NCBI RefSeq assembly: GCF_964355755.1
Contig: NC_092674.1
Location: 7,874,001 to 7,938,000 of the forward strand
Length of the DNA stretch: 64,000 bases
Source of the DNA: Antedon mediterranea
Lineage: Eukaryota; Animalia; Echinodermata
Direction: 5' to 3'
Below are positions 1,591 to 64,000 of the stretch, in pieces. The notes beneath the pieces are model-generated. The model did not search any database and was not told the DNA's origin. It worked only from the letters and a program-made list of their open reading frames with translations. The stretch's first letter is position 1. The number at the start of each line of letters is the position of its first letter. The translations under genes and the position numbers were made by a program.

Positions 1591-2527
1591 GGAATACAAA
1601 ATTAAAATTGTTTTAGATAGGCATAGACCTCAATTTAAATTATATTAAAAGAGGAGTCAACCAGCGTATTGAAAAGCAACATTCTTTATCATTCCCGACA
1701 ACTAAAAGTTTATTATATACTGCACCCCCTTTCCTTCACTCCTGAACAAATAATTTTTCAAAAGTTATTTGAGCCATTTTATTACTGTATAATATAGGTA
1801 TTTACTTGGACCGAAAATTGGAAAAAAATTATTTGCTGATTTGAAGATCTGATGAAGAAAAAAACTAGTCAATGGTCTGAAAGTCAATGGGTTTTGGTTC
1901 ATTTAATTGTTTATTTAATTTTTTCATAAGCGAAATCATTATTATCATTTTTTTTAGCAAAAGTGAAAAAATATTAAATTAAAAATGGCCTATTAAAAGA
2001 TTTAGTCATCTCACAATGTACTTTTAATCAGTGAAATGTTATTAAATTATAGTCGCGGAATAGTCGGGAATGCCTGGGATATATTTTTCCTATTGTTAAA
2101 CCTTGTGGAATCTATATTTTGAGTTTTCTTCTATATTTCGAATTTTAAAAATGTTTTTCTTTAGGCTAGCCTATTACTTGTTTCAGTTCCAGCAAAGTCT
2201 TAATTGTTGTATCTAGATCATCCTATCAAATTATTTATTTATTTTGATTCCAATTAAATCTTACTGTAAGCTATTTTACACGTGTCTGCTCTAATGATTA
2301 ATATTCATATATGTTAACACTAAAAATTGCAATTCTCTAATATACCAACGAGAACGTGAGAATTAGCGGGGTTGCTTTTCAAACTACCACATCTAAAAAA
2401 AAAAAAATTGTATTTACATTATTTACATCAGTTGATTTTGATGTAGTATGACAGCATCGATTTGATTGTTTTCCCTTCAGTATTTCTTCTCTAATAAGGG
2501 GAACTCAGTAGTAGTATTTTTCATTTT

Positions 2528-5500
2528 TCAATGATTACTATAAACATGATCCTGTACAGAATCAGACTCGGAGTTTGCATAAATGAATTCAGGCGGACAC
2601 GTAGTAACAGTAAGCTCAATATCTTCATATACACTTTGTTCATATTTTTCCGACAAACTGTGATAATCAGTATCTATTGTGCATACATTTTTTTGAACAG
2701 TAGAGGATTCACCAGCGTCTTTTTCTGAATCTATACGTCTACATCTAAAATAAACAAAGTGTATGTATATTTATTTCATCAAAGGATCTCCTTTTTTCAG
2801 AATTAATTTGATCGTAACATTCATAAGTCATAGTCATTATCTAAAGTTTTTTCATTTTCAACCACAGTAACAATCTAGGAGTGATACTTTACCGTTTCGA
2901 TATCATCAAGGTGATAACAACTGTGAGAATTATCAAGAGTACTGATGATCCAATTACAACTCCTATTAGTATTACGTAATCTGAAAAACATGAAACATGT
3001 CACATTGTTATAGTTGTCATTTTTAATGTATGTAGAATTCTAGGTCTAAATCTCTTCGACTGTTTTCATTAACAATACTAACATTTTATCTCAATCAATC
3101 TCAATACACACCTAATTGCTCCTTCTGGCTTGGATCACAATTGGTTCCAAACCAAAATTTCTTTGTGTCAGATGTACTGTTATTGTTTACATATGATGCA
3201 AATACTGTGAATGTATATTCTATACTTGGCTCAATTTCTTCACCAAATAATACAAGTTCAGTTTCTGTTGTACTTCCTTGCTGAAAGATTCTACCTGACA
3301 ATTCATAATAGTAGATCAGCTGATAGTCTGTGATTCCACACGTAGGAGATTTCCACTTTATCACAAAATGTGTTCCATTTGTGAATGGCCCAATTTTAAT
3401 CGCTGGTTCTAGCATTACAAAATAGAATATAAAATAAATATTGTAAGCCTAATTTGTTTCTTACAAGGATAGACATAGACATCGCTTTATTCATCCTTAG
3501 ATTTGAATATTACAGTGTTCTTATCTTTCTCTCTTAATAATTATAAAAACAGTATTAAATAAAGACAAAAGAATATAACTAACGAACATATCTTCTATTG
3601 AAAAGGCCAAAAAGGATGGTATTATGTTTATTAGAATAGGGAAGAGTAAACATTCCACTCTTTCGGATTAGGACTGTTATTATTTTAGTTAATGGTCAAC
3701 CAACCTGACGGAGCTGTTTGTATCTTTGTATTTTGTCCCCAATTACCGGCAATATCCATATTATTAATAACTCGAGCGTTTACGACATATTCAGTACAAC
3801 TTGATAATCCTGATAGTTCAACTTCTAATTGAGAACTGTTTGTTGTGTTGACAACATCTTGTGTATTTCCATCAATGTCCGAGTATTGCACTTGATATCG
3901 AAGAATATAGTTACATTGGATGCTATCATAATTACTAGATACAGGCTGAAAATACAACAAAAAAATTCAGGTAAGGTAAAATGGGTATGACAGCTATGAC
4001 ATGGAAACCTGGGGCCGGGGAGAATTGGACGGCCCAAAACAACATGGCGGAAAACAGTGGAAAAAGTGGGAGAAACCCTTAGATGGGAGGACATGTAACG
4101 AATCAAAACTATAACCAACTAGAACATTGCCATTGCAGCCTTATGGCCCACGAGGTCTGAAGAGGTTAGGTAAGGTAAAATATAACCAAAATACAGTAAA
4201 TGACAAATACCGTTGTTTGGATATGATACAGGTAACCGTTAACAATTTTCGATTTAATATTTAAAATCTAAAAAAAAATAGAAAATACTTTGACACCTAG
4301 CTACTACTGAACTACAGGCAATGAATTATTTGCGGACCATTTTAAAAACTATTTACGTCATTAAAACCTAAAACAGCAACATAATGTATACCTTTAGGTG
4401 ACAGAACATTTGCGGAACCTTTGAGAAACCATTTACGTCATGAAAACTATGTAATACTTTCACTGAACATACATAAATACCAATAACGTAATGTATAATG
4501 TTTGAAACATTATAACAAACAAAAATAAATCTATATTAAACAATGTACCTTTACACTCACGATCATCTGATTATCTTCAACGGTTTCTAATTCTATCTCA
4601 GGTTCTTCTAAAGGTTCTATTTCATAATACAAAAAAATCAATTTCAAACAGTAGGTAAGTCGATGTTATAGATTTACGCCCTATTATAGATATAAAATAA
4701 ATGCATTTGGTTAATTTGCTGATCGCAGTAATATAACTAATATACTTTGTATTGTTTTACATGATTTTGGTGTAATAATAGAGTTTACCTAAACAGATTG
4801 TATTTGTTGTTCCAAGTGTACTTCTTGGTCCATCTATCTCAATACCACCAACCACCCTCGAAAATTGAGAGTAGAACTGAACTTGAGTATTTGGGATGAG
4901 ATTATCAATAACAATAAATACATCGTTTTCTGGTTTAACTATAGATGTAAATGAATCCATCTGCGATGATTTATATGAAAGCTTTCGTCTTGTAATTGTT
5001 CCTGTTCCATAGTCTTCACCAGGAATCCAAATGACATCAAATGCTATATTTGTTGCTGTCTGGTTTACAACACTTGGCGGTTCAGAACGATATGGCAATG
5101 CTAATTGTTATAAATACAAAATGTTTTGTAAAAACTGTAAGTTTTAACTAACTAAGTAACTCATTTGAATAGGGTATAGCAGAAAATGCTGATCATGTGT
5201 CATTATGGAGGATCTTGAATATGTCACATATTAACAGATTGTATGTTTTATAATTTAATAGAATTACCACTGGAGTCACATTTGATTACGGGAAAGCATC
5301 AAGTGCTCGACTACAATAGTTGATGCTAATGCTAGTAGTAGGCCTACCAATACCATGCTTGCATCAAGCTACTGCAGTATTATGTTGTATTATGCCTATC
5401 TATCCAAACTGAAAAATACACTTTTTATATTTGTTTATTATCGTTACCTATGCTGCATTCATCTCCCGTCCATGCCTCATGACATCCATTAGGGCAAATT

Positions 5501-8500
5501 CCATCTCGATTGCAATTTACAGAATGTTTGCAGTGACATGGATAGTTACACAAAACACCAAAGAATCCGGATGGACAGAACGGCGGTACTATTATAAACA
5601 AAACAGGTACATATAATTTTAAAAACAAAACAGTTTTTTAAATCTTTGGTCCGTAAATACATTTTTTAAATAGATTTTCTTTTAAAAATATGACTATAAA
5701 ACGTTATTTTTGGGATTTAAAGTAAAAAAAAAAACTATTATGGAGCCATGGTTTTGAATATTGAATAATATTTATATAGTAAGTTAACTTTAGTTTGCAA
5801 AGTGAAGATAAACCAAACAACCTAAATAAATCAGAAATTAAGCGAAATACTTGGCAATATAGAGATAGCAACAGAGGGCGTGCTGTTTATTATTTTGGCC
5901 CATATATTGAATATATATATACAAATAACTCCAGATTTTAATCAGAATTTGTCACCAATACATCAATTGTTCTGACAATCAACAGACATGTCTGGAAGTA
6001 TATACCCATTAACGCCTAACAATTCAGGAAGAAGATTTTGGGCGCAACCGTGCAAACAAACAAACAAAAACAAACAAACAAAAGACACAAAGCAAGTACT
6101 ATAAATTTATACTTTGCTAAGTAACAATTGTGGTTAATTGTGGTACAGTAGTATCATAAAGTGTATACTTTTAGAGTATACAGTACCTTGACAAGTATCA
6201 CCAGTGTATCCATCCAAACGGTTTGACCCGGATGAACATCCTGTGTGTTTATCACAAACACTATCATCACAGTGACATTCTTGGCGACAATCTGCTCCAT
6301 AGTATCCAGCCCCACACACTATAAAACGTAGTTCAATATTATTCCATCACAGATAATATTATGTTTACAGTTTTCACATCTTATTCTATCATTATTTCTT
6401 ATCTTACTTGAGTGAACATGTAATAATCATTACAATAATATTATATTATAATCATATTATAGCAATAATTCTAATACAGTATTAATTATAAACTTTTTAA
6501 ATCTATATATAAATTTACATAGGGGAACATTTTTGTAACAATAACCTGTACTACAATCGTTTCCTCCAAAACCATTGATGCATGTACAACCAACTGGATC
6601 AGGTGGACAAAAAAGTATTCCAGTACAATTCGCACCCTCGCTGCTACACACAGAGTCACATTTACGACCCCAGTTGTTATTTCCACAACCTATCGAAAAT
6701 AAAATACATAAAATAACGTTCAATGTATGTTTATTTGTTAATTACACGTCCACGTATTTTAGCAGTTTATATTTAGGCCTACCGTTTTCACAAGAATCGC
6801 CGTTGAATCCTGCTTGGCAAATACAAACACCCGTTTTATCGTCACACACTCCACCATTATAACATACGGGACAGTCCATTTCACAGTCTGGAGGGTTCCA
6901 CTTTGGCGAGGGACAAGCTAATAAAGACAACATTTAAAATGAATACACTACTGTATACGATTATATTGGTCGGTATATTTTTGCTTAGTACAAACAGAAT
7001 ACTGTGACTAATGTATGGCTCAAGGCAGTTTATACTTCATGTTTTTCAAACTAGCATTTCGAATCTCAAAAACCACATATAAAAAAAAAATAGTTTAACA
7101 ATAAAGTATTTTTTAAATGATTTTATGTATTGTCCCTTGAAACACAAAATAATGAAGGTCAAAATATTCTAAATTTAAAGTGGCCATATCAAAGTAATAT
7201 TAAAGTTATTCACTTTAAGTCGAAAATTCGAGCAAAAAACAACAAGTTTACGTAATTAACAGGTAAATTAGTTTGATTACATTTCATCTGGAAAATCGTC
7301 ACGAGCGAAAGTAAACAAAGATTTCAAACCATGAGTACTCATTATGCATGTGCTAAATTAGGGTTGTTTACAACTCGTCACGGTTAAGAAGGTATTTTCA
7401 CACAGATCATGAGGAAGTTTTATGATTATGCATACAGAGTAGCCAAACAAGCGCGTTTCATTATGGGATATGTTTTTATTGAAAAGTTTGACTGGAAGTC
7501 AAAGTAATTTTTTTAACAAAAAAACGTTTGTATTTCAGTTAAATTATTTTTTTTTCTAACAATTTTTGGTGATAGTTAATAAGTATTATGATACTTCAAA
7601 ATGACCCACCTTTTTTCGAAATCTTTTATTTTTTATTTTTTGGGAATTAGTCAAAGGGACAATACATATTTAACGATACAATTTAATTAATGTAATTAAT
7701 TTTAAAATGTCCTTTTCCTTTGTGTCATGTTTTAATAATATCCCTATAAATCTGTATCAATACGGTTTATTTAAAAAAAATAGAATTATTATTATATCAA
7801 CCAGCCACATTAAATAGTTCCCATGTATATACAAGAAACTATTTTATCGGACGTGTTTCCATTTCATTAGAATTTGCATCTGTATAATTGATTTGTAATA
7901 AATGTTATAACTTACTTCTAACAATAAGTCTCATGATACCATCGGTACCATCAGGGCTATCACCTGTATAACATTCATATACGCCATCATCTTTCCCTCG
8001 TATTTTTTCTATCACAGCAGACATATTACCCCTCAGATTGTGTATTTCCTTTCCATAATTATGTCTCCAGCGTAAATCGTCAAGATCACCACCTTTACTG
8101 AGATTGATAGTGACAGACTCCCCTATACCGACCGTAATCGTTCTGTGCTCCATTTCAATATTGGCTGTAAAAATTGAATCAATAGGTCATACAAACTAAA
8201 CGTAATCATGTAATGGGCTGATGTGTTTTTCTAGTTAACAATCACCTCTATAAAAAAAATTAATTGATAATTTAAGGACGGGATTGCATGGCATTACTCA
8301 CCAGAAGCAGATTTCAATATTATTGCTGTATGTGTGACTACTCCATTTTTCTTTGCTTCAAATGAAAAGACACCAGTCTGAGTTTGTAAGTTATTAACAC
8401 CTAGAAAAGTGAAATATTGGTGTGTTCGGAATCTAATTATGCTGTCGGTAGAAAATATTTTACCGTCTGGCATATCTTTTGTTTGCTGCCTAGAGCTTGG

Positions 8501-9079
8501 GCCTTTAAAATTATCAGTATCAGCCCAAGTCACGTTATCGTTTCCATTAATATTCTTGTACAATATTCCAACAGATAAATCTCTGATGTCTTTGTCTTTT
8601 TGAAGTGCGAATCCTTGAAACCAACCATTACTATTCGCGTCAACTAGAGGTGTTCCAGAAAGTGCTGTTATATCTAATGGCTCTTAAAGAATAAAAAAAA
8701 AGTAATTCTTAATGAAGTTCAATCTGGTGAATAATGGCTAGTACTGTAGACCATTTTCGGGAATACGGTATACATGTAGAATAAATAGATTATAGTAATA
8801 TAACAATGTGACAAAATTAGCAGTGGCTGTTTGCAGATTAGAGGTAACCTTATGATTTGTTATTTCTATTGTTACAGCAATTTGCAGATAGTTTTTGCTT
8901 CCACACACAAAAAATAGCCATGTATATTTCAATACAAACTAATGAATAAAAATAGAAGCCCCCGATTTTAAAAAAAATGTAAGCAAGTCAGTATAAAACA
9001 TACCTGATAATCCTGAATTAAACGTAAAATATAGAGTCACAAGCAGGTGGAACAAGTGTGAAAAACGTATAGCTAACAT
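2528..9079 (-). CDS. Tie/angiopoietin-receptor-like type I membrane protein, kinase-less, ITAM tail (copy A), 13 exons, 826 aa
   Basis: Exons assembled by hand with GT-AG sites and consistent phases: 9079-9004 (signal MLAIRFSHLFHLLVTLYFTFNSGLS), 8682-8302 (Ig1, EPLDITALSGTPLVD...GVFSFEAKKNG), 8164-7916 (Ig2, ...MRLIVR), 6917-6783, 6689-6546 (FCPPDPVGC), 6318-6187, 5588-5448 (4 EGF), 5100-4789, 4616-4549, 3945-3705, 3408-3112 (3 FN3), 2980-2893 (TM YVILIGVVIGSSVLLIILTVVITLMISKR), 2744-2528 (tail, TGA). Total 2481 nt, open frame. EGF and Ig motifs resemble vertebrate Tie1/Tie2. Confidence 0.9.
3970..4180 (+). mobile_element. RTE-clade LINE 3' fragment in an intron (also at about 60300-60500)
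   Basis: Encodes AMTWKPG..GRPKTTWRKTVEK...AALWPTRSEE, an RTE C-terminal motif, with a GGTAA tail. Absent from copy B's homologous intron. Confidence 0.65.
7124..7673. mobile_element. MITE (Kolobok-like) specific to copy A
   Basis: TIR TATGTATTGTCCCTTGA (7124-7140) pairs with TCAAAGGGACAATACATA (7651-7668), with TTAA at the right end. The homologous intron of copy C is about 600 bp shorter. Confidence 0.6.
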
Positions 9080-9225
9080 CTTCACTAAGCTCACAGGTAC
9101 CAGAATTAGTAGCTGACTAGTCCTAGTAGTACGCTCATTTAAAACTCAATATTCGATTAGCAAATGTGCCATAGGCCTAATATTCAAAAATGTGTAATAA
9201 TGACATTAGCAGTTGAATTAGTGAA

Positions 9226-10700
9226 TGTTCGGATTTCCGAAATTGACGTTTGGGGAGGTAGATATTGGTGTTGGGTTGTTGAAGAATTATAGTAGTGGAA
9301 GTTATTATAGTAGATAATAATTATATTCTTATTCCTGAAGGCCGATGCCGAATTATGATTTGAATACATGCGGCAAATAAAGCCAGAATCAATAGTTCAG
9401 TAGGCATGTTTGTATCATATTAATATATAAAAGTATTAATGTCATACCGTATTTTATTTCTCAAATTGTATTCAGTATAGTAATTAAAAGTAATTTACTT
9501 TAGCTATTTTCATATTTATCTTGTGCATTTATATATTCTATTTGTTAATGGTATGTGTCTTTTAGGGGGATGTGGATAGAGAAGCTTGTCACATGTTCAT
9601 CCATTTCTTTTTGCTGCCTATATGTTATATTATGTGCAGTGATAAAGCTTAATAAATTTTAAAAAAATAAACGATACAAAGTTCGATCTTATTTTTACGA
9701 AATAAAACTGAAACAAGGGAACACCGAGTATGTCATATTACTGGACCAATTATTGGATTTTCTATCATTAGAATCATTAATTAATTGTGTGGAGACGATT
9801 TTTCTGCTCTCGAGGGATCCACCCTGTAACCGTTTTAGTGATCGTGGCCGTAAAACCTGTATGCGCACAGCAGTAGCTGAGAGATTGGATCAAATAGTGG
9901 ACGTCGTATAGCCGATTACCATCATTTTAGTGCCCTTGAATTGCAGACTATTTTTGGTGAAGTGACATATAGAGTCAACTCACAACCATTGTTTGCGGAT
10001 GGAACTGATCCCTGAATCATCACCAATTACTTTCTTTTACCACACGAACAACCTGTAATTGTGCAACCCAACTCGGACGTGCTAACGAATCAGAAAGGTA
10101 TTTTCGACATGGCACAACGACCTATCCTTGCATTCTGGAATTGCTCAAATAGTATACAACGTTCAAAGATTGGATATTTGGTGCTAGTACTTGAACCTGG
10201 GTTAACGGGGGCACAGTACCTTGATTAACGGTGTATAATTGTTGTGGATGTGAAGCCTGGGAAGGACAATCTTATTCTTAGGGCCATGTAATGGTAATGG
10301 TAATGTAGAAAGATCAAATAAGTACACTGGGACGGCCTGTACATAAACTGTGTTTGATTGCAACTGTGAAAGAACACAATTTTTCTTCGAAATAAGATAA
10401 TATATTACGTAAAAGTCCTTCAGACGTCTGAACATTGAATTACTGTAATATTATTAAATATAGATTTGTTTTGTAGTGGTTATTCGAAATCATTGTACGT
10501 ACTGTGACTCATTTTAATTCGTCACAAAGCGGGAGCGTTTCGGATTTCCGAACATTGGCGTTTGGGGTGTGAATATTTTGGTTGTAGACGAATTGACAGC
10601 AAGAAAGTCAGGGTTATCTAATAATATATAGGTGGACGTAAGTTATTATATTATAGTTTGTGTATTCAGACTTTTCCTAAGGATAAAGTACGGCTAAAGT
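9226..10700 (+). mobile_element. Degenerate BEL/Pao LTR retrotransposon remnant
   Basis: Broken frames give ELQTIFGEVTYRVNSQPL, VKPGKDNLI and RPVHKLCLI (BEL integrase C-terminus). Diverged direct repeats GTT(T)CGGATTTCCGAA..TTG.CGTTTGGGG occur near 9227 and 10537, the second preceded by purine-rich AAAGCGGGAG. Confidence 0.65.
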
Positions 10701-11889
10701 AACTATAACGAATTCGTTGTATCATCATCCGGATGGATGATACGTAGGTCTACGGATTATAATACAAAGTTTTTCCTTGTGTGGTTTTATCAACTCGTGA
10801 CTATATCTTTTACAAATAATTGTCTTATATTTAACACTTAAATGGAACAGTTATGGTTTTGACATTCATTCGCAAAAATAATCTACTATCATTTAAACGT
10901 AAACTTAAATTAAATGGTTTCCTTTTTTGACAGTTTATACTGTACCATAATAATAATTATAATTATTTAAAATGTGTTGTGCATGTGCGCGGACGCAGAC
11001 GAGAAGTAAGACAGTGAGTTGATCTGGGTCTCCGTATTAAAGTTAATTTATTTAATTAATTAGTTAAATTAAACTTAATGCCGTTAATTGTAGATCTTAA
11101 TTTAGTTGGTTGACTATCGTAACTAATTTGCCTTTCAAATTTGTTTGTTTTGGTATTGACAGATAAATAAATGTATTTTTTTTTTAAATAACAATTTTAT
11201 ATAAATAATTTCATGTGATTTCAGTCTGTTAATTAAGATTGGATTGATTTAAATTAAAAAATAAAAACACGCAAGCATAAGATAAACGTATACAGTATAT
11301 ACCAGGTAAATACAACAAAATACATTAAAGCCATCTTTTTTTTAATGCATTCTAACTTCATTGTTTGTAAAATGCTACCGATTAATATTTGAGGTTATTT
11401 TTTATTATTTATTATTTAGTGACATTTCATTAATTCAATCATTAAAGAGTCGTGAAGAAATGCTTGCTAAACAGTTATTAATATAGTAGAAAAGCTGACT
11501 AATTTTAACTAGTGATTTGATTATTTAATTAGTACTGACAATGCTATACTGTTGTAAAACAGTTTAATAGGACTAGGACGACATCATATTTCTGTTATAT
11601 ATGAAGATTATAAGAGATAGCCTACAGTGAAATAAGCATTTTTTTTATCCTTTTGTTTATACTAATTTAATTTTGTATTTAAGCCTATTCTGCATTCATA
11701 GAAATGTTCGTAAACAGTTATTAAATTACGCTGTATATAATACTTCTAGTTAAAGTCATATACAGCTTTCAAAAGAAATGGTTGCTATATCTATATAATA
11801 ATTGTATTTTCGTTTAAATCTTACTGTAGAAAGACTACTTCAAAGTGTCTGTTCTATAAATGATTAATATGGATCTTTCGATTTGCCAT

Positions 11890-12019
11890 GACCAAACTAG
11901 GTCATGTCAGTTCATTGTACGGACAAGTTAGGACGCCCTTCTTCGCTCTCCATCTCGACGCTTGGTGGCTTGTAAGTTCAGATGATAATCGACCGTCGAT
12001 TGACATGACCTAGCTTGGT
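11890..12019. repeat. Small inverted-repeat element (MITE-like)
   Basis: ACCAAACTAGGTCATGTCA pairs with TGACATGACCTAGCTTGGT. Confidence 0.5.
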
Positions 12020-12264
12020 TCAGATCGTCATCGCAAATCTGCAGCTCCTCTTATTTTCTATTTTACATATTTTATTTAATGCAGTTTATTGGTTAATCGT
12101 TTTGGATAGGAGCACTTAAGAATGGTCGTTTATTTTGCAAACTACCAGTTTTGTTGATAAAATTGTATTATATTTACATTTTGTTGATTGTTTTTAGACT
12201 ATGCTTAATTATAGCTATAGATTTACTTCTGTACTGTAACTACATTTTTTATTTCTTCAGTACT

Positions 12265-12315
12265 TAGGCTAGGCTAGGCTAGGCTAGGCTAGGCTAGGTA
12301 CTACTACTACTACTA
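12265..12315. repeat. (TAGGC)n plus (TAC)n microsatellite in the 3' UTR of copy B
   Basis: Seen directly in the sequence. Confidence 0.85.
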
Positions 12316-12340
12316 ACTCAATAGGTTTATTTTTGATTTC

Positions 12341-15300
12341 TCAATCAACTGTATTAACATAAACATGTTCCGGTGCAGGCTTGGTGTTTGCATAAACATG
12401 TTCACCAGATGAGGATTCAACAGCAGGTTTAATTCCTTCATACTCACTTTCTTCATATTTCTTAGATAGACTTTGATAATTTGTATCTATTGTGCATACA
12501 TTTTGTTGAACATCAAATTTAGCAGCGTGTTTTCCTGAATCTATACGTCTAAATCTAAAAGAGACCAAATGTATTTATATCAATCAATTAATAAAAAAAA
12601 AAAAAATGAAAAATAAATATTTCATCAATATCAAAAAACTTAAAACTTAACAGAAAAAGAACAAGATTAGTCGAGGCGAAGGTAAAGGCTCAAGGCAAGT
12701 GTCTTACGGTTTTTTAGATTGAGCCTTTACTTTCGCCTCGAGTAATCTCAATCTTTTTAGTCGCGTGGAAGCGACTCTATAGTTCACTATGTCGGTCGGT
12801 CGGTCGGTCTGTCTGTCGGTCTGTCGGTCTTTCGGTCTGTCGGTCTGTTGGTCCGGTATCAATATGCGTTTTATCGCTTTCTGACCTTATCTTGATATCA
12901 GTTTAATCTAACTAAGTCAGTATATTCCTTATGGCCAGGAATCGATGTTGTTATGTTTTCACGGTGCGCAATAAAAAATTACGCAATAAAAAATTACGTG
13001 GTCTACGCACGATTTAACGAAATCACGTTTGTAATCATATCTTCACAACCATGAATCACAATTAAATAAAATGTGGTACTCATAAATTTCAGGGCATAAA
13101 TCATCATATGGCAATACAATTACATGCGTAGCGCATGTAACGCATGCGTACGCGCGCTTAAAATTTTCAAAATTTATTTTCGATGAAATAAGAGTACGTT
13201 TCAGTCAATTTTAAGCGTTTACAAAATTGCCATGAGTGCGCAGATTTTTACGCGCGCACTGCGCGTTAATTGTTATTGCGCACTCTTTTTGCCCGATGTC
13301 TGTTTTCTTGACTTACTTTTCAACTCGAAACTACGTTATACGAGCTCGTCAAAAGTGACAGGCTACGCACGTGTAAATTAAAAAATATAACTGTTTTTAA
13401 ACATTTCAACATTTTTAAACATGTTCAGTCATTTCGGTCAGTTGGTAGGTTGGTCGGTCGGTCGGTAAACACTAAGCACGCGACTGCAGCCATCTATATG
13501 GCCTTGTTCTGTTAAGTTTTAAGTTTTGTGATATGGATGAAATATCAAGCATAGTAACAGTTTCAGTGTGTGATACTATATGGATGAAATATCAAGCATA
13601 GTAACAGTTTCAGTGTGTGATACTATATGGATGAAATATCAAGCATAGTAACAGTTTCAGTGTGTGATACTATATGGATGAAATATCAAGCATAGTAACA
13701 GTTTCAGTGTGTGATACTATATGGATGAAATATCAAGCATAGTAACAGTTTCAGTGTGTGATACTATATGGATGAAATATCAAGCATAGTAACAGTTTCA
13801 GTGTGTGATACTATATGGATGAAATATCAAGCATAGTAACAGTTTCAGTGTGTGATACTATATGGATGAAATATCAAGCATAGTAACAGTTTCAGTGTGT
13901 GATACTATATGGATGAAATATCAAGCATAGTAACAGTTTCAGTGTGTGATACTATATGGATGAAATATCAAGCATAGTAACAGTTTCAGTGTGTGATACT
14001 ATATGGATGAAATATCAAGCATAGTAACAGTTTCAGTGTGTGATACTATATGGATGAAATATCAAGCATAGTAACAGTTTCAGTGTGTGATACTATATGG
14101 ATGAAATATCAAGCATAGTAACAGTTTCAGTGTGTGATACTATATGGATGAAATATCAAGCATAGTAACAGTTTCAGTGTGTGATACTATATGGATGAAA
14201 TATCAAGCATAGTAACAGTTTCAGTGTGTGATACTATATGGATGAAATATCAAGCATAGTAACAGTTTCAGTGTGTGATACTATACCGTTTATACATCAT
14301 CACGATGACAGCAACTGTGATAACTGCCGCGATTAGTGAGCCAATTACAACACCTATGATGTAACCTGGAAAATATAAAAGGACAAATTTTCTTGTTTTA
14401 TTTACATTACTGGTACTGAATCTAATAAGAATTCCAAACAATGAACTATGTGATACACACCTAGCTTCTTTTGGTCACAATTTGATCCAAAAATGAATTT
14501 ATTTGTGTCAGATGTCCCATTAACGTTTAAAAATGATGCCAATACTGTGAATGTATATTCTGTACATGACTCAATTCCTTCACCAAACAAAACTTGAGTT
14601 TCTGTAGTATTTCCTTGCTGAAATATTCCACCTGACAGTTCATAATGGTAGGTCACCTGATAGTCTGGAATGTCACATGTAGAAGCGTTCCATTTCATCA
14701 GTATATGTGTTCCATTTGTGAATGGATTGCTTTTTATCGATGGCTCTATTATTGTAACATAGAATATTAAACAGATTTATAATAAATGAATTATACTATA
14801 CATTAAGAATTGTTTCAATTGGTCGATATAATCTTTTACCCATTTTTTATATATAAACTTTACACTAAATGACTAACTAGGCCTAAATGTTAGTAAAATA
14901 CACTCAAACATTTAATGACTTAAGCATACCTGATGGTGCTGTTTGGATCAATATGTCCTCTCCCCAATTTCCAGCAATATCTATGTTATTAACAACTCGA
15001 GCATTTACGACATAAGCAGTACAACTTGATAATCCTGATAGTTGAACTTCTAATTGAGAACTGTTTGTTGTGTTGACTACATCTTGTATATTTCCATCTA
15101 TGCCCGAGTATTGCACTTGATATCGAAGGATGTAGTTACACTGGATTGTATCATAATCACTAGATACAGGCTGAAATACAGAAAAAAGACAAATACCGTT
15201 ATTTGAATCTGATACTGGTAACCAATTTCTGCAGTTTGATAATATGTTATATTGTAAGGACAAACAATTAGAGAATACTTTACAACTTTACTTGCTTGAA

Positions 15301-18300
15301 CTTACTTAGTTCATTTACAAATACCAATAACGTAATGTATACGGTATTTACATTCACTACTTAAATTAGACTTTCTAGTAGGCCTCTAGTTCCTTAATAA
15401 TTAATTTGTTGATTGTGGAACTTACGATAATGAAGAACAAACAAGAACAATAAAAACATCTCTAGTGTACCTTGAAACTCACTATCACCTGATTATCTCC
15501 AATGGTTTTTAATTCCATCTCAGGTTCTTCTGAAGGCTCTATTTCATAATATGTAACACAACGGATTAGAACTGACATACAAAATACAACGTGGTGTGCT
15601 ATGGTAGATATCATAATAATTTTTTTAACAACAAAGAATACTACTACTACTACTACTACTGCGTCGAGCTTGCTCGGATCAAAGAATAAATAAAGTAATA
15701 TCTAATATATTCCAACAAAAAATTAGCATACTGTAAAACAAGTAAAAATTAATAATCTGTGAATGATAAAATCCTTAAAACAAATGTTGGCAATCTTTTA
15801 ATTCTAGAATTAATAAATAGATCTATAGATACTAGATTTATAAAATCAGTTGACGCGTTGCTGATTACATGGCTTGGCAGTTTGTTAACTGATTATCTGT
15901 AATGTTAGATCTTGCCTGAACATATTGTGTTGGTTGATCCAAGTGTACTTCTTGGTCCATCTACCTCAATACCACCAACCATCCTCAAAAACTGAGAGTA
16001 GAATTGAACTTGCGTAATTGGGATGAGTTTGTCAATGACAATACATAAATCATTATATGATTCAGTTATTGATATAAATGAATCCATCTCCGATGATTTA
16101 TACGAAAGTTTCCGTTTTGTAATTGTTCCTGTTCCAAAGTCTTCACCAAGAATCCAAGTGACGTCAAATGTTATACTTGTTGCTGTCTGATTTACAACAG
16201 TTGGTGGTTTAAAGTTGTATGGTAATGCTATTTATGAAAATAGAAAACACACTGAACTATTAAAACAGAATACATGTAGGCCTATGTGTTGTTCTGCCGT
16301 ATAAACTTTACTAAATCATCTGCATATCTAATTAGATGGTTTTACTCGCATTATAGTCGGATGTATAGAGACTATAATGACTTCAGAGATATAGATAATA
16401 TATGGGCAAGGCAATTGAGAATAATTGATAGAGAAACATACGATAAATGTTCATGTGGAGCAATTTGTCGATAAGCAAGTGTAACTATGATTATGACTAT
16501 CAATTTGTTTGTGTGTGCATCATAATGTTTGTGCAAATTAATTAATTATTCTCTTTATGTGTATATAATCAGGTTTTAAATGTTTTTTTTATATTTACAT
16601 AATTGACTATTGTGTAGTTTTTGTAGGGCTGTGGATACTCGCATGTTGCGCATTGTTGCTTTCGCAACCTCTATTTTTGACCGATTGTGTCGATAAAATA
16701 AATGGAATGAATAAATAAAACTGTAAAACATGGAAACATTTGATGATCCTAGTTGCCTATTGTGAATTTTCTAAATGAGAAATCAAATTAACTGCATCTT
16801 CAGTTATACAATGTGGTACTACAGAGAAAAGTCAAGATGTATGTATGTATGTGTATGTATTTAATTAATTAACTTTCATGACAAAATATGTAACTAATAA
16901 TCCAATCCCTCTCTCTCTCCCGATAATTCTTCAGGCTACTTTGAATAGCTGAACGTATATGACATATAGTTTAATTTCGTGTAGTTACCTATGCTGCAGT
17001 TTGGTCCAGCCCAAGCTTCGTGGCATCCATTATCGCAACCTCCATCTCGATTACAATCTGCCGAAGCTTTGCAGTGACACGGGAAATTACACAAATCACC
17101 AAAGAATCCAGACGGACAGAACATGGCCACTATACACAAAGCGGAGATATGTGTGTTACAAAAGTAAGTGAGATTTGCACAAAAGCAGGCACCGTATACA
17201 CACAGAACACAAGAAAAAGAGCCAACAACAATCAGCACAAAATAATTATAAAGCGTCTTGCATTGAATTTTAATTAAATTCGATTTATATTTGCGTGCGA
17301 TACACAGTGTTAATGTGAAGTATAGTCTATAACTAGTTGATAAATCTGATATTGCTAGCTGTCATCAGGCCCGGGCATCAGGCTTGGATTGTCACTCATT
17401 GTCATCATGAGGTTGTGAGTTGAAGTCCGTCTCTCGTAATTACTACAAAAACAAGATTACATTTAAACATAATATTGAGGTAGATATACGCAGGTTTTTG
17501 ACATACAGTACCTTGACAAGTATCACCAGTGTATCCAGACGAACAGACTGATCCGAGAGAACATCCCGTGTGTTTATCACAATAACTGTAGTCACAATGA
17601 CATTCTTGGCGACAATCAGCTCCATAGTATCCAGCTGCACACACTATAAAATTAAGTATATTTTATCACATATACCTGTATTATCATTAATAATATTACA
17701 ATTATTACTAATTATAATAGTAGGCCTACAGTACTGAACTATCATTTATTAACCTTTATTACAATCGTTTCCTCCAAAACCATTGATGCATGCACACCCA
17801 ACTGGATCAGGTGGACATAAAACAGTTCCTCTACAATCCCCAACAGAAGAAGAACACACAACGTTGCAGTCACGACCCCAATCGTTATTTCCACAACCTA
17901 TCCAAAATGAAATACTGTTTTACTTAATGTTTCTTTATTTTATTTACACCACCACCAACATGAACAATGTTTATTTATTACCGTGTGCACAAGTGTCGCC
18001 GTCGAATCCTGCTGGACAAATACACACACCCGTCTCATCGTCACACGCTCCGCCATTATAACATACGGGACATTCCATTTCACAGTCTGGAGGATTCCAT
18101 TTTGGTAAAGGACAAGCTAATAGATTTTTATTAAAATAAATACATGCAATTTTATAAATCTTGATATCAATTATAGAACAGAAAGTAAATTTATATTCGG
18201 AAAATTTCAGGCAGTTTAGAGTAAATAGGCTTAATGTTAATCTTTTCCCTTTAAAGTAATGGTTTAAATGAAAGAAATATAAACTAATATTAAATATCCA

Positions 18301-19910
18301 TACCAGAAAAAAAAACAATTTTAGTATCTGTATACTTATTTCTTTTCTCGCACGCCTATTTTATCAACAGAATAGGAATTCATTATTGGATCCAGATGAA
18401 ATTATTTCAAAATATAAACTTTTGGAAACACAAACAAGTTATTTGCCAAGGAAACCTTTAAACAACATTGTACAGTAATCAAATATTTGTGGTGGTTTGA
18501 CGTGTTAGGCCTACACTTTTTACAGATTTTTTTTGTATTATTCATTTGTAATGTAATAACACTTACCTCTAACAATCAACCTCATGACACCATGGTTACC
18601 ATCCGGGCTATCACCTGTATAACATTCATATACGCCATCATCTTTTCTTCGTATGTTTTCAATCACAGCAGACGTATTACCCCTCATATTGTATATTTCT
18701 TCACCGTAATTATGTCTCCAGCGTAAATCGGTAAGATTACCACCTTTACTGAGATTGATAGTGACAGACTCTCCTATACCGACTGTTATCGTTCTGTGCT
18801 CCATTTCAACATTGGCTGTAAAATTATACCAGTATGAACTAATAGTAGGCCTATATTTTTTAGTTTCTATTTAACCACCATGGAATTATAACATTTTCTA
18901 ATTTTATAGCTCTATGATTTAAAATCTTAAATTCATAATGTTATAATATCTTTATGAAGACACAAATAAGGATACCATGCCATTACTCACCAGAAACGGA
19001 TGTCAGTACAATTGCTGAGTTGGTGACTTCACCATTTTTCTTAGCTTCGAATGAAAAGACACCAACTCTGTCTGCAGCCCGTAAGCTACTAACGCCTAGA
19101 TACGTAAAATATGAATTGTGTAATCGGTATATAACTACACTTTCGGTGGGAAATATTTTACCGTCTGGCATATCCTTTGTCCTCGGTCTAGAGGAACCGT
19201 TATAATTACCAGTATCAGCCCAGGTCACGTTATTTTTGCCATCAACATTCTTGTATAATATTCCAACTGATAAATCTCTAATGTCTCTGTCGTCCTTAAG
19301 TGCGTATCCACTAAACCAACCAATACTATTATCGTCAACTAGTGGCGATCTAGAACTAATTGTTATATCTAATGGATCTATAAAAAATAAGATTGTATTA
19401 ATGTATTTATTTAAATTTCACGAGGCAGATACAGAATGTCCGTACATACATACATACATACATACATACATACATACATACATACATGGCATTCAATTTA
19501 CGCGGAGTTAAATTAATTATGTAGGTCAAAAAGTAGAACATTTGCCTCGAAAAGTGTCTAATAGCAATTTATTCTCGGCTTATGACATTCGTTCACGGTA
19601 CTGAAAGAGCGTAATTTATGATTTGGTTTGGATGTCTATTTCCTGCTATTTAAGAGCATAGTAGTTCTGCTTTAGGCTTTTCAGTTGGTTTGTGACATTA
19701 TGAAAGAATGTTAACAGTCCTTATTACTACCGACATATATCTTTATATGAATTCATGATAAAATAATTAATGAAACACTATAATAGGTTATCTAAATCTT
19801 GTGATATTATTTTAACCGTTTAGCTTACCTGTAGATTCTAATGGACAACCAAAATAGATAATTGCTACAACCAGATGGCACACATTTGACGTATATTTAA
19901 CGAAAATCAT
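12341..19910 (-). CDS. Tie-like kinase-less ITAM receptor (copy B), 13 exons, 822 aa
   Basis: Exons 19910-19829, 19377-18991, 18815-18567, 18116-17982, 17897-17754, 17643-17512, 17129-16989, 16227-15916 (GC donor), 15538-15471, 15170-14930, 14745-14461, 14365-14287 (TM GYIIGVVIGSLIAAVITVAVIVMMYKR), 12554-12341. Same phases as copy A; 2469 nt, open frame. Tail ends ...DTNYQSLSKKYEESEYEGI...HVYAN...HVYVNTVD*. Confidence 0.9.
12754..13508 (+). mobile_element. HINE/DINE-1-like element in the last intron of copy B
   Basis: Starts TTTTTAGTCGCGTGGAAGCGACTCTA, contains a (GTCG/GTCT)n microsatellite at 12791-12855, and ends CACGCGACTGCAGCC...GGCCTTGTT. Confidence 0.6.
13531..14282. repeat. Perfect minisatellite, 16 x 47 bp
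   Basis: Unit ATATGGATGAAATATCAAGCATAGTAACAGTTTCAGTGTGTGATACT; 752 bp equals 16 identical copies. It abuts the donor of copy B's TM exon. Confidence 0.95.
19443..19486. repeat. (TACA)n microsatellite
   Basis: Seen directly in the sequence. Confidence 0.9.
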
Positions 19911-20664: not shown

Positions 20665-21245
20665 GACTATAATGTACTCTGTATATTATTTCACTTGTGG
20701 GAGTAAATATTTTATCGTTTAGCATAGGCTTATTTTGAAAATCTGTATAAATAGTATTACCACCCGTATGCCCAGTGTCATTCCAAGTCACGTTATCTTT
20801 CTCTTCGATTTTCTTGTACATTATTCCAACTGATAAATCTCGAATGTTTTTGTCGCCTCAAAGTATGTATCCAGCAAACCAACTACCACTAGGCGTCGTT
20901 AGTGGTGTCGTAGAAAATAATGTTATATCTAATGGATCTGCAAATGGATAGTAAGTGATTCATTTTCAATTATAAACTTTCAACAAACTTTAGTTAAACC
21001 TAAAAGAGATTTAAAACTGAAAAGAGAGGAACAAGAAATGCATTTGATTAAAATTTCCATTCTGAAAGTAGGCTACATTGTTAGTTCACTTTATTTCCAT
21101 TGTCACTCTTTGTGTCTGATAAAACTGGCTAAACAAATTCGCAAGCTTTAAATATATTACTCCTACTCTGTATCGTTCGACAACCAAAACTGAGAACTGC
21201 TAAAACCAGATAAAGAATATTTAACAAATAGTTTACGGAAAACAT
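20665..21245 (-). pseudogene. 5' relic of a fourth Tie-like paralogue (signal exon plus disrupted Ig1 exon)
   Basis: ATG at 21245 gives MFSVNYLLNILYLVLAVLSFGCRTIQ. After an acceptor near 20938 the sequence reads DPLDITLFSTTPLTTPSGSWFAGYIL*GDKNIRDLSVGIMYK...NVTWNDTG...NDKIFTPTSEIIYRVH with an in-frame TGA. No downstream exons before copy B's first exon. Confidence 0.75.
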
Positions 21246-44780: not shown

Positions 44781-44821
44781 TACTTTCTTTTAAATTAGAG
44801 AACTTTCTGTTTTTATTTTCT

Positions 44822-58713: not shown

Positions 58714-61700
58714 TCAATGATTACTATAAACTTGATCCTGTACAGAATCAGACTCGGAGTTTGCATAAATAAATTCAGGCGGACACGTAGTAACAGTAAC
58801 CTCAATATCTTCATATACACTTTGTTCATATTTTTCCGACAAACTGTGATAATCAGTATCTATTGTGCATACATTTTTTTGAACAGTAGAGGATTCACCA
58901 GCGTCTTTTTCTGAATCTATACGTCTACATCTAAAATAAACAAAGTGTATGTATATTTACTTCATCAACGGATCTCTTTTTTTAGAAATAATTTGATCGT
59001 AACATTCGTAAGTCATAGTCATTATCTAAAGTCTTTTCATTTTCAACCACAGTAACAGTCTAAGAGTGATACTTTACCGTTTCGATATCATCAAGGTGAT
59101 AACAACTGTGAGAATTATCCAGAGTACTGATGATCCAATTACAACTCCTATTAGTATTACGTAATCTGAAAAACATGAAACATGTCACATTGTTATAGTT
59201 GTCATTTTTAATGTATGTAGAATTCTAGGTCTAAATCTCTTCGACTGTTTTCATTAACAACACTAACACTTTATCTCAAGCAATCTCAATACACACCTAA
59301 TTGCTCTTTTTGGCTTGGATCACAATTGGTTCCAAACCAAAATTTCTTTGTGTCAGATGTACTGTTATTGTTTACATATGATGCAAATACTGTGAATGTA
59401 TATTCTATACTTGGCTCAATTTCTTCACCAAATAATACAAGTTCAGTTTCTGTTGTACTTCCTTGCTGAAAAATTCTACCTGACAATTCATAATAGTAGA
59501 TCAGCTGATAGTCTGTGATGTCACACGTAGGAGATTTCCACTTTATCACAAAATGTGTTCCATTTGTGAATGGCCCACTTTCAATCGCTGGCTCTGGCAT
59601 TACAAAATAGAATATATAATGAATTATTATAAGCCTAATCTGTTTGTTATAAGGATGGTAACATGTCTAGAATAGGAAATAGTAAACATTTCACTCTTCC
59701 CTGATTAGGACTATTATATATTTTAGTGAATGGTCAACCAACCTGACGGAGCTGTTTGTATCTTTGTATTTTGTCCCCAATTACCGACAATATCCATATT
59801 ATTAATAACTCGAGCGTTTACGACATATTCAGTACAACTTGATAATCCTGATAGTTCAACTTCTAATTGAGAACTGTTTGTTGTGTTGACAACATCTTGT
59901 GTATTTCCATCAATCTCCGAGTATTGCACTTGATATCGAAGAATATAGTTACATTGGATGCTATCATGATTATTAGATACAGGCTGAAAATACAACAACA
60001 AACATTCAGGTAAGGTAGATTGATTGATTGATTTTATTCGATATTCATACATAAAAAGTTAAAATATACAATGTATTAAAAGAATACCTGGATAACCCAT
60101 TAAGTCGACAAAAAAGTAAACTTATTTCCAATGGGGTCCAATCCGTAATGACTGAAAAGTGAGTGGTTGGGCCTAGTACAATTATCATTAAGTATGACTC
60201 AGTAAAAATGAAAAAAACAAGAAAATACATACAAGACAAGATAACATCAAAAAAACAATATTAAAAATAACTTAATTAAACTGAAATTCCAAGCTGTAAA
60301 ATGTGTATGACAGCTATGACATGGAAACCTGGGGCTGGGGAAAGTCGGACGGCCCAAAACAACATGGCGGAGAACAGTGGAATAAGAGGGAGAAACCCTT
60401 AAATGTAGGACATGTAACGAATCAAAACTATAACCAACTGGAAAATTGCCATTGCAGCCTTATGGCCCACGAGGCCTGAAGAGATTGGGTAAGGTAAAAT
60501 ATAACCAAAATACAGTAAATGACAAATACCGTTGTTTGGATATGATACTGGTAACCGTTAACAATTTTCGATTTAATATTTAAAATCTAAAAAAAATAGA
60601 GAATACTACTACTGAACTATAGGCAATGGAATATCTGCGGACCATTTTAGAAACTATTTACGTCATTAAAACCTAAAACAGCAACATAATGTATACTTTT
60701 AGGTGACAGAACATTTGAGGAACCTTTGAGAAACCATTTACGTCATGAAAACTATGTAATACTTTCACTAAACATACATAAATACCAATAACATAATTTA
60801 TAATGTATGAAACATTCTAACAAACAAGAATAAATCTATATTAAACAATGTACCTTTACACTCACGATCATCTGATTATCTTCAACGGTTTTTAATTCTA
60901 TCTCAGGTTCTTCTAAAGGCTCTATTTCATAATACAACAAATCAATTTCAAACAGTAGGTAAGTCGATGTTAGTAGTTATAGATTTACGGCCTATTATAG
61001 ACCTAAAATAAATGCAGTTGGTTAATTTGCTGATCACAGTAATATAACTAATATACTTTGTATTGTTTTACATGATTTTGGTGTAATAATAGAGCTTACC
61101 TAAACAGATTGTGTTTGTTGTTCCAAGTGTACTTCTTGGTCCATCTATCTCAATACCACCAACCATCCTCGAAAATTGAGAGTAGAACTGAACTTGAGTA
61201 TTTGGGATGAGATTATCAATAACAATAATTACATCGTTTTCTGGTTTAACTATAGCTGTAAATGAATCCATCTGCGATGATTTATACGAAAGCTTCCGTT
61301 TCGTAATTGTTCCTGTTCCATAGTCTTCACCAGGAATCCAAGTGACGTCAAATGCTATATTTGTTGCTGTCTGTTTTACAACACTTGGCGGTTCAGAACG
61401 ATATGGCAATGCTAATTGTTATAAATGCAAAGTGTTTTGTAAAAACTGTAAGTTTTAACTAAGTAACTCATTTGAATAAGGGATAGCAAAAAATGCTGAT
61501 CATATGTCATCATGGAGGATCTTGAATATGTCACATATTAACAGATTGTATTTTTTATAATTTAATAGAATTACCACTTCACCACGTCACATTTGATTAC
61601 GGTAAAGTATCAAGTGCTCGACTACAATAGTTGATGCCAATGCTAGTAGTAGGCCTACCAATACCATGCTTGCATCAAGCTACTGCAGTATTATGTTGTA

Positions 61701-64000
61701 TTATGCCTATCTATCCAAACTGAAAAATACACTTTTTATATTTGTTTATTATCGTTACCTATGCTGCATTCATTTCCAGTCCAAGCCTCATGACATCCAT
61801 TAGGGCAAATTCCATCTCGATTGCAATTTACAGAATGTTTGCAGTGACATGGATAGTTACACAAAACACCAAAGAATCCGGATGGACAGAACGGAGGTAC
61901 TATTATAAAAAAAACAAGTACATATAATTTTAAAAACAAAACGTTTTTTTAAATAGATTTTCCATAAAAGATATGACTATAAAACGATATCTTTTGGATT
62001 TAAGGTAAAAAAACTATCATGGAGCCATGGTTTTGAATATTGAATAATATTTATATAGTAAGTTAACTTTAGTTAGCAAAACCAAACAACCTAAATAAAT
62101 CAGAAATTGAGTGAAATACTTGGCAATATAGAGATAGCAACAGTGCTATTTATTATTTTGGCCCATATATTGAATATAATATATATATAAATAACTCGAG
62201 ATTTTAATCAAAATTTGTCACCAATACATCAATTGTTCTGACAATCAACAGATATGTCTGGAAGTATATACCTATTAACACCTAACAATTCAGGAAGAAG
62301 ATTTTGGGCGCAACCGTGCAAACAAACAATCAAAAACAAAGAAACAAAGCAAGTACTATACTTAGCAAATTTATACTTTGCTAAGTAACAATTGTGGTTA
62401 ATTGTGGTACAGTAGTATCACAAGGGTGTATACTTTTAGAGTATACAGTACCTTGACAAGTATCACCAGTGTATCCATCCAAACAGTCTGACCCGGATGA
62501 ACATCCTGTGTGTTTATCACAAACACTATCGTCACAGTGACATTCTTGGCGACAATCAGCTCCATAGTATCCAGCCCCACACACTATAAAACGTAGTTAA
62601 ATATTATTCACAGATAATATTATGTTTACAGTTTTCACATCTTATTCTATCATTATTTCTTATCTTACTTGAGTGAACATGTAATAATCATTACAATAAT
62701 ATTATAGTATAATCATATTATAGCAATAACTCTAATACAGTATAAATTATAAACTTTTTAAATCTATATATAATTTTACATAAGGGCACATTTTAGTAAC
62801 AATAACCTGTACTACAATCATTTCCTCCAAAACCATTGATGCATGTACAACCAACTGGATCAGGTGGACAAAAAAGTATTCCAGTACAATTCGCACCCTC
62901 GCTGCTACACACAGAGTCGCATTTACGACCCCAGTTGTTATTTCCACAACCTATCGCAAATAAAATACATACAATAACGTTCAATGTATGTTTATTTGTT
63001 AATTACACGTCCACGTATTTTAGCAGTTTATATTTAGGCCTACCGTTTTCACAAGAATCACCGTTGAATCCTGCTGGGCAAATACAAACACCCGTCTTAT
63101 CGTCACACACTCCGCCATTATAACAAACGGGACAGTTCATTTCACAGTCTGGAGGGTTCCATTTTGGTGAGGGACAAGCTAAGAAAGCATTTAAAATAAA
63201 TATAACTATACGATTATATTGGTTTGTATATTTTTGCTTAGTACAAACAGAATACTGCGACTAATGTTTAAGTTTTAAGTTTGTACATCATGTTTTCCAA
63301 ACTAGCATTTCAAATCTCAAAACTACATTATAAACTAATTTTAAACTAAAATAAACGTATTTCATTTCAAAATGTACTTTTCTTTTGTACCATTTTTCAA
63401 TAATATTCCTATAAATCTTTGTCAATGCTGTTTTTTTTTTTAACGTAGAATTATTATTATATCAACCGACCACATCAAATAATTCTCATTTGTATATAAG
63501 GAACTATTTTATCTGACGTTTTTCCATCTGTTTAATTAATATGTAATAAATGTTATAACTTACTTCTAACAATAAGTCTCATGATAACATGGTTACCATC
63601 AGGGCTATCACCTGTATAACATTCATATACGCCATCATCTTTTCTTCGTATGTTTCCAATCACAGCAGACGTTTTACCCGTCATATTGTGTATTTCCTTT
63701 CCATAATTATGTCTCCAGCGTAAATCGTCAAGATCACCACCTTTACTGAGATTGATAGTGACAGACTCCCCTATACCGACCGTAGTCGTTCTGTGCTCCA
63801 TTTCAATATTGGCTGTAAAAATTGAATCAATAGGTCTTACAAACTAAACGTAATTATGTAATGGGCTGATGTGTTTTTCTAGTTAACAATCACCTCTATA
63901 AAAAAAATTAATTGATAATTTAAGGACGGGATTGCATGGCATTACTCACCAGAAGCAGATTTCAATATTATTGCTGTATGTGTGACTACTCCATTTTTCT
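58714..64000 (-). CDS. Tie-like kinase-less ITAM receptor (copy C), 5' end outside the window
   Basis: Exon-for-exon near duplicate of copy A (ORF track 59286, 59723, 61068, 61736, 62381, 62793, 63553). Stop TGA at 58714-58716; ITAM at 58804-58851. The window ends inside the Ig1 exon. Confidence 0.88.

Follow-up and report, generated by a model that had tools for sequence, protein, structure and literature searches.

Three predicted genes in the feather star Antedon mediterranea, here called A, B and C, encode receptors that combine a Tie-like ectodomain with a short cytoplasmic tail carrying an immunoreceptor tyrosine-based activation motif (ITAM). They lie on the reverse strand of a stretch of 64,000 nucleotides (contig NC_092674.1, positions 7,874,001 to 7,938,000; hereafter the window, in which all positions are counted). 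Comparison with their relatives shows that these genes descend from a receptor tyrosine phosphatase with a Tie-type ectodomain, truncated by a stop codon where the phosphatase region begins. Their motifs class them as ITAM receptors, and they are neither Tie kinases nor, any longer, phosphatases. Our reading of their function, to which we give a probability of about 60%, is that the tail-only A, B and C would form the activating side of a paired receptor system, in which phosphatase-bearing relatives would damp the same signal.

How ITAM receptors originate, and how animals have repeatedly evolved paired families with activating and inhibitory members, is still unsettled. Here, a route from phosphatase to ITAM is recorded together with a 3' fossil and living intermediates, and the order of events and the switch of sign are thus directly testable. 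The A/B/C family further represents a set of candidate recognition receptors for crinoids. Our literature searches turned up no account of this family or of a phosphatase-derived ITAM receptor, although a description of the parent phosphatase may exist.

Descent from a receptor tyrosine phosphatase

The stop codon of gene B (TGA, 12343-12341, reverse strand, as for all gene features below) is followed in frame by EIKNKPIEL (12340-12314), a phosphatase-proximal fossil whose KPIEL is in register with the Y-[KRT]-PIEL that opens the phosphatase region of relatives. The last tyrosine of B stands 10 codons ahead of the motif position; of the 8 distinct relatives of phosphatase type with Y-[KRT]-[PS]-IEL, 5 show this offset. 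The chance of KPIEL at a fixed place is ~5e-7, and KPIEL occurs nowhere else in the window's six frames (0.06 occurrences expected). A tblastn alignment of the cytoplasmic part of the relative P0017 continues through the B stop to 12314. The stop of gene A (2530-2528) aligns by eye with that of B, and a decayed remnant lies past the stop in both A and C. Additionally, the tails of A, B and C are similar in sequence to the segments of P0016 and P0017 next to the membrane (best E 1e-10). Because of the fossil, this tail homology and the trees described below, we regard the tail as a leftover of a phosphatase juxtamembrane region. The Asn-Lys codons of the B fossil, which arose through a change of an ancestral Tyr to Asn, read AATAAA (12331-12326), 10 nt past the stop, and may be a polyadenylation signal helping to end the transcript; AATAAA is common near the B tail, with 5 occurrences in 700 nt.

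The window holds no phosphatase exon, the sequence available downstream amounting to 2.5 kb for A, 3.3 kb for B (up to gene A) and ~39 kb for C. Nor was a kinase exon found in the window (tblastn, best E 0.88), which agrees with the earlier reading that no kinase follows the tail.

Searches with the ectodomain point in the same direction. The Ig1 exon retrieved 13 homologues, all crinoid, two of them with Y_phosphatase domains and none with a kinase, the best match being P0001 of Antedon mediterranea (71% identical), which has two phosphatase domains. With the relative P0011 as query, a kinase domain was present in 5 of 64 relatives, all from Patiria and 31-39% identical, the closest Antedon members of the same set being 64-82% identical. 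A further 126 representatives, assigned to classes by a crude script, comprised 23 phosphatase forms, 8 kinase forms, 39 with a transmembrane segment (TM) and neither domain, and 56 without a clear TM. The ten phosphatase forms looked up came from sea stars, a sea cucumber, amphioxus and a scorpion, and another was from a hemichordate. As the Tie-type ectodomain is found more often on phosphatases than on kinases among the 126 relatives retrieved, labels such as 'Tie-1-like kinase' and 'angiopoietin-1 receptor-like' are misleading for these genes.

In a quick tree of the ectodomain (64 rows, with 9 rows under 50% coverage left out), A, B and C fell into an Antedon clade with the phosphatase-bearing P0001 and P0017, and the parent group of this clade in the ectodomain trees includes phosphatase forms from Anneissia. 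A more careful tree of 20 chosen rows placed A, B and C in a clade with P0001, in which both phosphatase domains (D1 and D2) are intact, and P0017, with support of 99/98. With the same rows, the approximately unbiased (AU) test rejected forcing the tail-only and kinase proteins together (p-AU 1.4e-6).

The preliminary description had proposed a rewired Tie receptor tyrosine kinase, with an ITAM tail in place of the kinase domain. In its favour, the ectodomain is homologous to that of Tie2, and echinoderm Tie-like kinases do exist (the 5 of 64 relatives and 8 of 126 representatives above); much further back in time, kinases and phosphatases have this ectodomain in common. As the immediate origin, however, a Tie kinase is refuted by the fossil past the B stop and by the AU test, and the homology of the tail to phosphatase juxtamembrane regions also speaks against it, so that we now regard this origin as scarcely credible: what was lost was a phosphatase.

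The D1-D2 region of a relative is closest to PTP-alpha and LAR-type enzymes (PTP-alpha match E 2e-91). A pair of YxN sites is already present in the juxtamembrane region of the phosphatases P0009 (VYAN/IYGN), P0020 and P0024, and on this motif comparison the YxN pair of A, B and C is inherited from that region.

Tail motifs and the case for paired receptors

In gene B, the ITAM (12478-12431) reads YQSL-x8-YEGI, with a third tyrosine within the spacer, and is followed by the YxN sites YAN (12394-12386) and YVN (12361-12353). Gene A has YHSL-x8-YEDI (2665-2618) followed by YAN (2581-2573) and YSN (2542-2534), and gene C has YHSL-x8-YEDI (58851-58804) and then two YxN. All of these motifs were located where the preliminary description had put them, and the tails are truncated as it had reported, with a stop codon 72-73 residues beyond the TM in each gene. 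The consensus YxxL/I-x(6-9)-YxxL/I, which is also the one given for the Hydractinia Alr family (PMC9546547), is satisfied in 3/3 window genes. Shuffling each tail 200,000 times produced an ITAM in 0.4% of cases for A and 0.17% for B, and an ITAM together with two YxN in 0.003%.

Besides the four tyrosines of the ITAM and the YxN pair, the tails have one more in the ITAM spacer, and all five are retained between A and B at a tail identity of 53%. When five tail lineages were aligned, 19 of 67 ungapped columns were invariant. Both ITAM tyrosines, the Leu and Ile at +3 and the spacer of 8 residues are the same in 5/5 lineages. The first YxN is likewise constant, and so is the final tyrosine; the tyrosine within the spacer and the last Asn have been lost from P0025. 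The ITAM tyrosines are hence conserved across further paralogues, and the earlier view that they are kept while the residues between them diverge holds for the tyrosines themselves, whereas the whole ITAM block is kept and the distal part alone diverges. The tail exon of gene B found four matches, one of them phosphatase-bearing, and is 99% identical to the Antedon mediterranea RefSeq model P0014. Over the whole genes, the ratio of nonsynonymous to synonymous substitution rates (dN/dS) is 0.47 (A-B) and 0.39 (A-C), showing purifying selection on A, B and C overall.

Relatives from Antedon and Anneissia, taken as RefSeq models, represent several stages between enzyme and tail. P0001 and Anneissia P0009 have the D1 motifs KNRY, WPD and HCSAGAGRT intact, P0074 has kept KNRY and the HC motif (the two examined), and an ITAM is found in none of these three proteins. 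P0202 has a near-ITAM (YxxL-x8-YxxV) and KNQN for KNRY, with the catalytic Cys and WPD remaining. An exact ITAM is present in P0028, in which the D1 catalytic Cys is replaced by Ser, WPD reads WSD and the KNRY loop is gone. In P0017 and P0016, D1 is deleted, and they carry a near-ITAM and the first half of an ITAM, respectively. Thus, among the relatives, an ITAM or near-ITAM is limited to proteins in which catalytic or substrate-binding motifs of D1 are lost. In a tree of D2, P0202, P0028, P0017 and P0016 form one clade (Shimodaira-Hasegawa-like approximate likelihood ratio test, 99) nested among intact enzymes. The juxtamembrane regions of P0016 and P0017 additionally contain repeated VY-x-x-P units ahead of the lone D2, and these proteins could possibly be multi-site adaptor scaffolds.

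The RefSeq paralogues found in Antedon confirm that the family is expanded. The Antedon clade includes 11 TM models that are phosphatase-less (3 from the window, 8 from RefSeq); the ITAM is exact in 7 of them, approximate in 1 and missing from 3, and the RefSeq models P0011, P0014, P0015 and P0025 stop at about the same place as the window genes. In a run of 10 consecutive RefSeq accessions from a single contig of 31.9 Mb, seven are models of these types, which suggests that phosphatase-bearing and tail-only genes may be physically adjacent; the window itself holds no phosphatase-bearing gene alongside A, B and C. The ectodomains of the tail-only proteins are ~70% identical to that of phosphatase-bearing P0001. 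The counterparts with an immunoreceptor tyrosine-based inhibitory motif (ITIM) that the preliminary description suggested looking for were absent from the 12 clade proteins scanned (10 juxtamembrane regions, and two models with stub tails), while single ITIM-like matches are present in more distant relatives.

Taken together as activating receptors with phosphatase-bearing partners, the genes would have the following history, in which we infer the order of events and, from established ITAM biology, the signalling. An intact D1-D2 phosphatase with YxN sites would have come first, a clade would then have acquired the ITAM while its D1 decayed, and a stop codon followed by loss of the phosphatase exons would have completed the change. 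In the resulting receptor, clustering by ligand would lead a Src-family kinase to phosphorylate both ITAM tyrosines, Syk or Shark would bind the doubly phosphorylated ITAM via its tandem SH2 domains, and pYxN would recruit Grb2. A paralogue with intact D1, whose ectodomain is similar and would therefore bring it to the same ligand, would strip the phosphates itself and need neither an ITIM nor SHP-1. Coelomocytes are a candidate cell type, and the immune, phagocytic or allorecognition role and the fibrinogen-domain ligands suggested in the preliminary description are conjectural. Syk, HTK16 and Grb2 are reported from a sea-star egg transcriptome (PMC11593052), and sea-star coelomocytes contain a receptor phosphatase as well as a Tie-2-like protein (PMC13409769), both possible kin of the A/B/C family; PMC10855541 lists a Tie-1-like kinase only. 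The wider claim would be that feather stars built paired immune receptors in this way, a phosphatase gaining an ITAM, its catalytic domain decaying and then being cut, so that an 'off' enzyme became an 'on' receptor, with every step surviving in one cluster and the intact paralogues serving as ITIM-free inhibitory partners that dephosphorylate ITAMs directly; we consider this tentative, its odds being slightly short of even.

The same genes could instead be phosphatase-derived decoys or adaptor subunits. They would either take ligand away from the intact phosphatase or associate with it, and in adhesion, growth or regeneration their tails would dock Src or Grb2, without Syk-type immune activation. 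This fits the derivation of the YxN pair from the intact phosphatase (P0009, P0020, P0024), the YxN sites known in receptor phosphatases (PMC5336234) and the likeness of D1-D2 to PTP-alpha and LAR-type enzymes. Against it stand the ITAM tyrosines, +3 residues and spacer length, invariant in all five tail lineages and absent from all three intact-D1 relatives; a pure decoy would have no need of the ITAM residues, and their invariance in the tails therefore counts against it. We consider such a role unlikely, though a serious contender.

Several points weigh against an activating, paired function. The tail has dN/dS values close to neutrality (A-B 0.81, C-B 0.95), so that signs of selection there are confined to the motif residues, and the low values of the ectodomain could partly stem from gene conversion with other paralogues. 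In EGF3 of gene A, an Arg (6220-6218) takes the place of a Cys found in B and C. The gene models are predictions from genomic sequence, and a tree of the FN3-TM-tail region left the attachment point of the tail-only genes without resolution. The P0202 phosphatase, with its catalytic Cys and WPD retained, may be active, and the association of the ITAM with a damaged or missing D1 probably goes back to a single event in evolution. The ITAM-free phosphatase-less models P0004, P0006 and P0085 look cut short, and P0019 and P0203 resemble one split gene, so that tail-only RefSeq models may conceal phosphatase exons and the absence of such exons is shown for the window genes alone.

Some of these points, namely the tail dN/dS of 0.81-0.95 and the Cys-to-Arg change in A, would also suit truncated by-products of a birth-and-death cluster, silent or decaying, in which the ITAM is left over from a P0028-like ancestor with both ITAM and phosphatase; the phosphatase-bearing P0028 already having an exact ITAM, and a stop-bearing Ig1 relic at 20959-20672, agree with this. 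Decay is at odds, however, with the aligned stops of A and B despite a synonymous divergence (dS) of 0.39, with 13/13 exons open and splice sites intact in both genes, with sequence past the stop that has decayed while the exons of A and B stay open, and with the four RefSeq models ending at about the same place. We therefore regard this explanation as improbable.

Gene models, ectodomain and surrounding sequence

The models of A, B and C are predictions made by slicing exons by coordinate. Gene B (19910..12341) is predicted to have 13 exons and to encode 822 aa without an internal stop, from an open frame with splice sites: 19910-19829, 19377-18991, 18815-18567, 18116-17982, 17897-17754, 17643-17512, 17129-16989, 16227-15916 (GC donor), 15538-15471, 15170-14930, 14745-14461, 14365-14287 and 12554-12341. 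Its predicted layout comprises a signal peptide, Ig1, Ig2, four EGF-like domains, three FN3 domains, a TM and a tail of 72 aa. Gene A (9079..2528), with the same layout, is predicted to have 13 exons and 826 aa: 9079-9004 (the sole candidate for exon 1 passing the filter applied), 8682-8302, 8164-7916, 6917-6783, 6689-6546, 6318-6187, 5588-5448, 5100-4789, 4616-4549, 3945-3705, 3408-3112, 2980-2893 and 2744-2528. For gene C (64000..58714), the window includes 12 exons of the 3' part, the 5' end lying beyond it. In gene B, 12/12 introns have an AG acceptor, and the donors are 11 GT and one GC (after exon 8); across the three genes every acceptor is AG and every donor GT save that one. The 13-exon models of A and B given in the preliminary description are accordingly open frames with intact splice sites.

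That description also counted three paralogues, and three predicted genes are present. The proteins of A and C, however, show 95% identity, and the two genes diverge by 2.6% across exons and 5.2% across introns; C is a recent duplicate of A or an uncollapsed allele. A and C thus count as one lineage, and the window represents two independent lineages, A and B being 72% identical in protein. Contigs of four sequencing runs were compared with positions 2300-7600, which include part of gene A. They extend through introns, and no match to the exon-exon junctions of model A was found among the 15 of 77 contig joints examined. Depth in exon bins exceeded that in intron bins by a factor of ~10-30, which is not a copy number but hints at many paralogues. 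A-type and C-type variants were mixed in the contigs of one sample, so that A and C could be either alleles or duplicates. At 6220-6218, the C-type letter was read by contigs of all four runs.

The Tie-like character of the ectodomain, as claimed before, is upheld by a phmmer match of the relative P0011 to Tie2 (E 1e-36 over Ig2-EGF3) and by a profile of 18 relatives that aligns to Tie2 residues 70-321 (E 5e-70). Domain assignment by hidden Markov models, which had been proposed as a check, gave a partial result: exon by exon, gene B matched Pfam models for Ig2, EGF1, EGF3, FN2 and FN3, most of them under curated cut-offs, and no match was obtained for Ig1, EGF2, EGF4 and FN1. Ig_Tie2_1, in particular, had no Pfam match in the window exons, and the C-terminal half of Ig1 alone aligns to Tie2; a distant relative, P0070, does match PF10430. 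An AlphaFold model of Ig1 was of low confidence (predicted local distance difference test 59), and its best fold-search hit was uninformative (Z 3.4). Ligand binding in Tie2 is through Ig2, and this is the exon most divergent between A and C (8164-7916 in A, 63812-63564 in C), with 87% aa identity, 11 nonsynonymous and 2 synonymous differences and a dN/dS of 1.6 from few sites; selection or gene conversion are possible causes.

The window is AT-rich (GC 0.34). The isolated Ig1 relic (20672..20959, reverse strand), with an in-frame stop inside, is a remnant of a fourth gene copy. A 47-bp tandem repeat of 16.1 perfect copies (13531-14285) begins directly at the donor of the TM exon of B. Between C and B, long open reading frames on the reverse strand (26383-28920, 33534-34904 and 42220-44841) look retrotransposon-like by eye, two of the long terminal repeat type and one of the long interspersed nuclear element type, with more repeats alongside. 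Further afield, short tails with an exact ITAM are found in Lytechinus pictus (P0121/P0204/P0205) and Anneissia japonica (P0113); these distant cases (2 of 39 tail forms) appear unlike the window tails and are possibly independent origins in other echinoderms. In P0115, P0134 and P0175, a Tie-like ectodomain is seemingly joined to multi-pass membrane regions resembling those of adhesion G-protein-coupled receptors, which suggests that it is a widely shuffled module.

Comparison with known receptor systems

A, B and C resemble Tie1 and Tie2 (TEK; the angiopoietin receptors), with which sea urchin SpTie1/2 is grouped here, in their Ig-Ig-EGF ectodomain, three FN3-like exons and TM, and differ from them in having no kinase and a phosphatase as immediate ancestor. 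In Tie2, a third Ig domain (Ig3) lies between the EGF and FN3 repeats, whereas A, B and C have no Ig exon between EGF3 and FN1 and a fourth EGF-like exon in that slot. With the Tie-ectodomain receptor phosphatases (Antedon XP_071950701, Anneissia XP_033097302), which occur also among sea star, sea cucumber, amphioxus and scorpion RefSeq models, they share the ectodomain, the juxtamembrane segment and, in B, a fossil of the phosphatase start. Unlike the tandem-domain receptor phosphatases (PTP-alpha/epsilon, LAR type, CD45), they have an ITAM and lack both phosphatase domains, and with an ITAM in place of the phosphatase, their output is predicted to be reversed relative to that of receptor phosphatases.

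Hydractinia Alr (PMC9546547) and Botryllus FcoR (PMC12582321) are likewise clustered invertebrate Ig-superfamily receptors with tyrosine-motif tails, their inhibitory arm being an ITIM, whereas here the receptor's own phosphatase would serve in that role. Known paired systems of vertebrates (KIR, Ly49, SIRP, Siglec, CEACAM3) provide the closing comparison. In these systems, activating members come from inhibitory paralogues with a similar ectodomain, the usual route being from ITIM receptors, and CEACAM3, like Draper/MEGF10, carries an ITAM in the receptor's own tail. The feather star family differs from them in that the inhibitory ancestor is an enzyme, of which intermediates with a decaying D1 survive.

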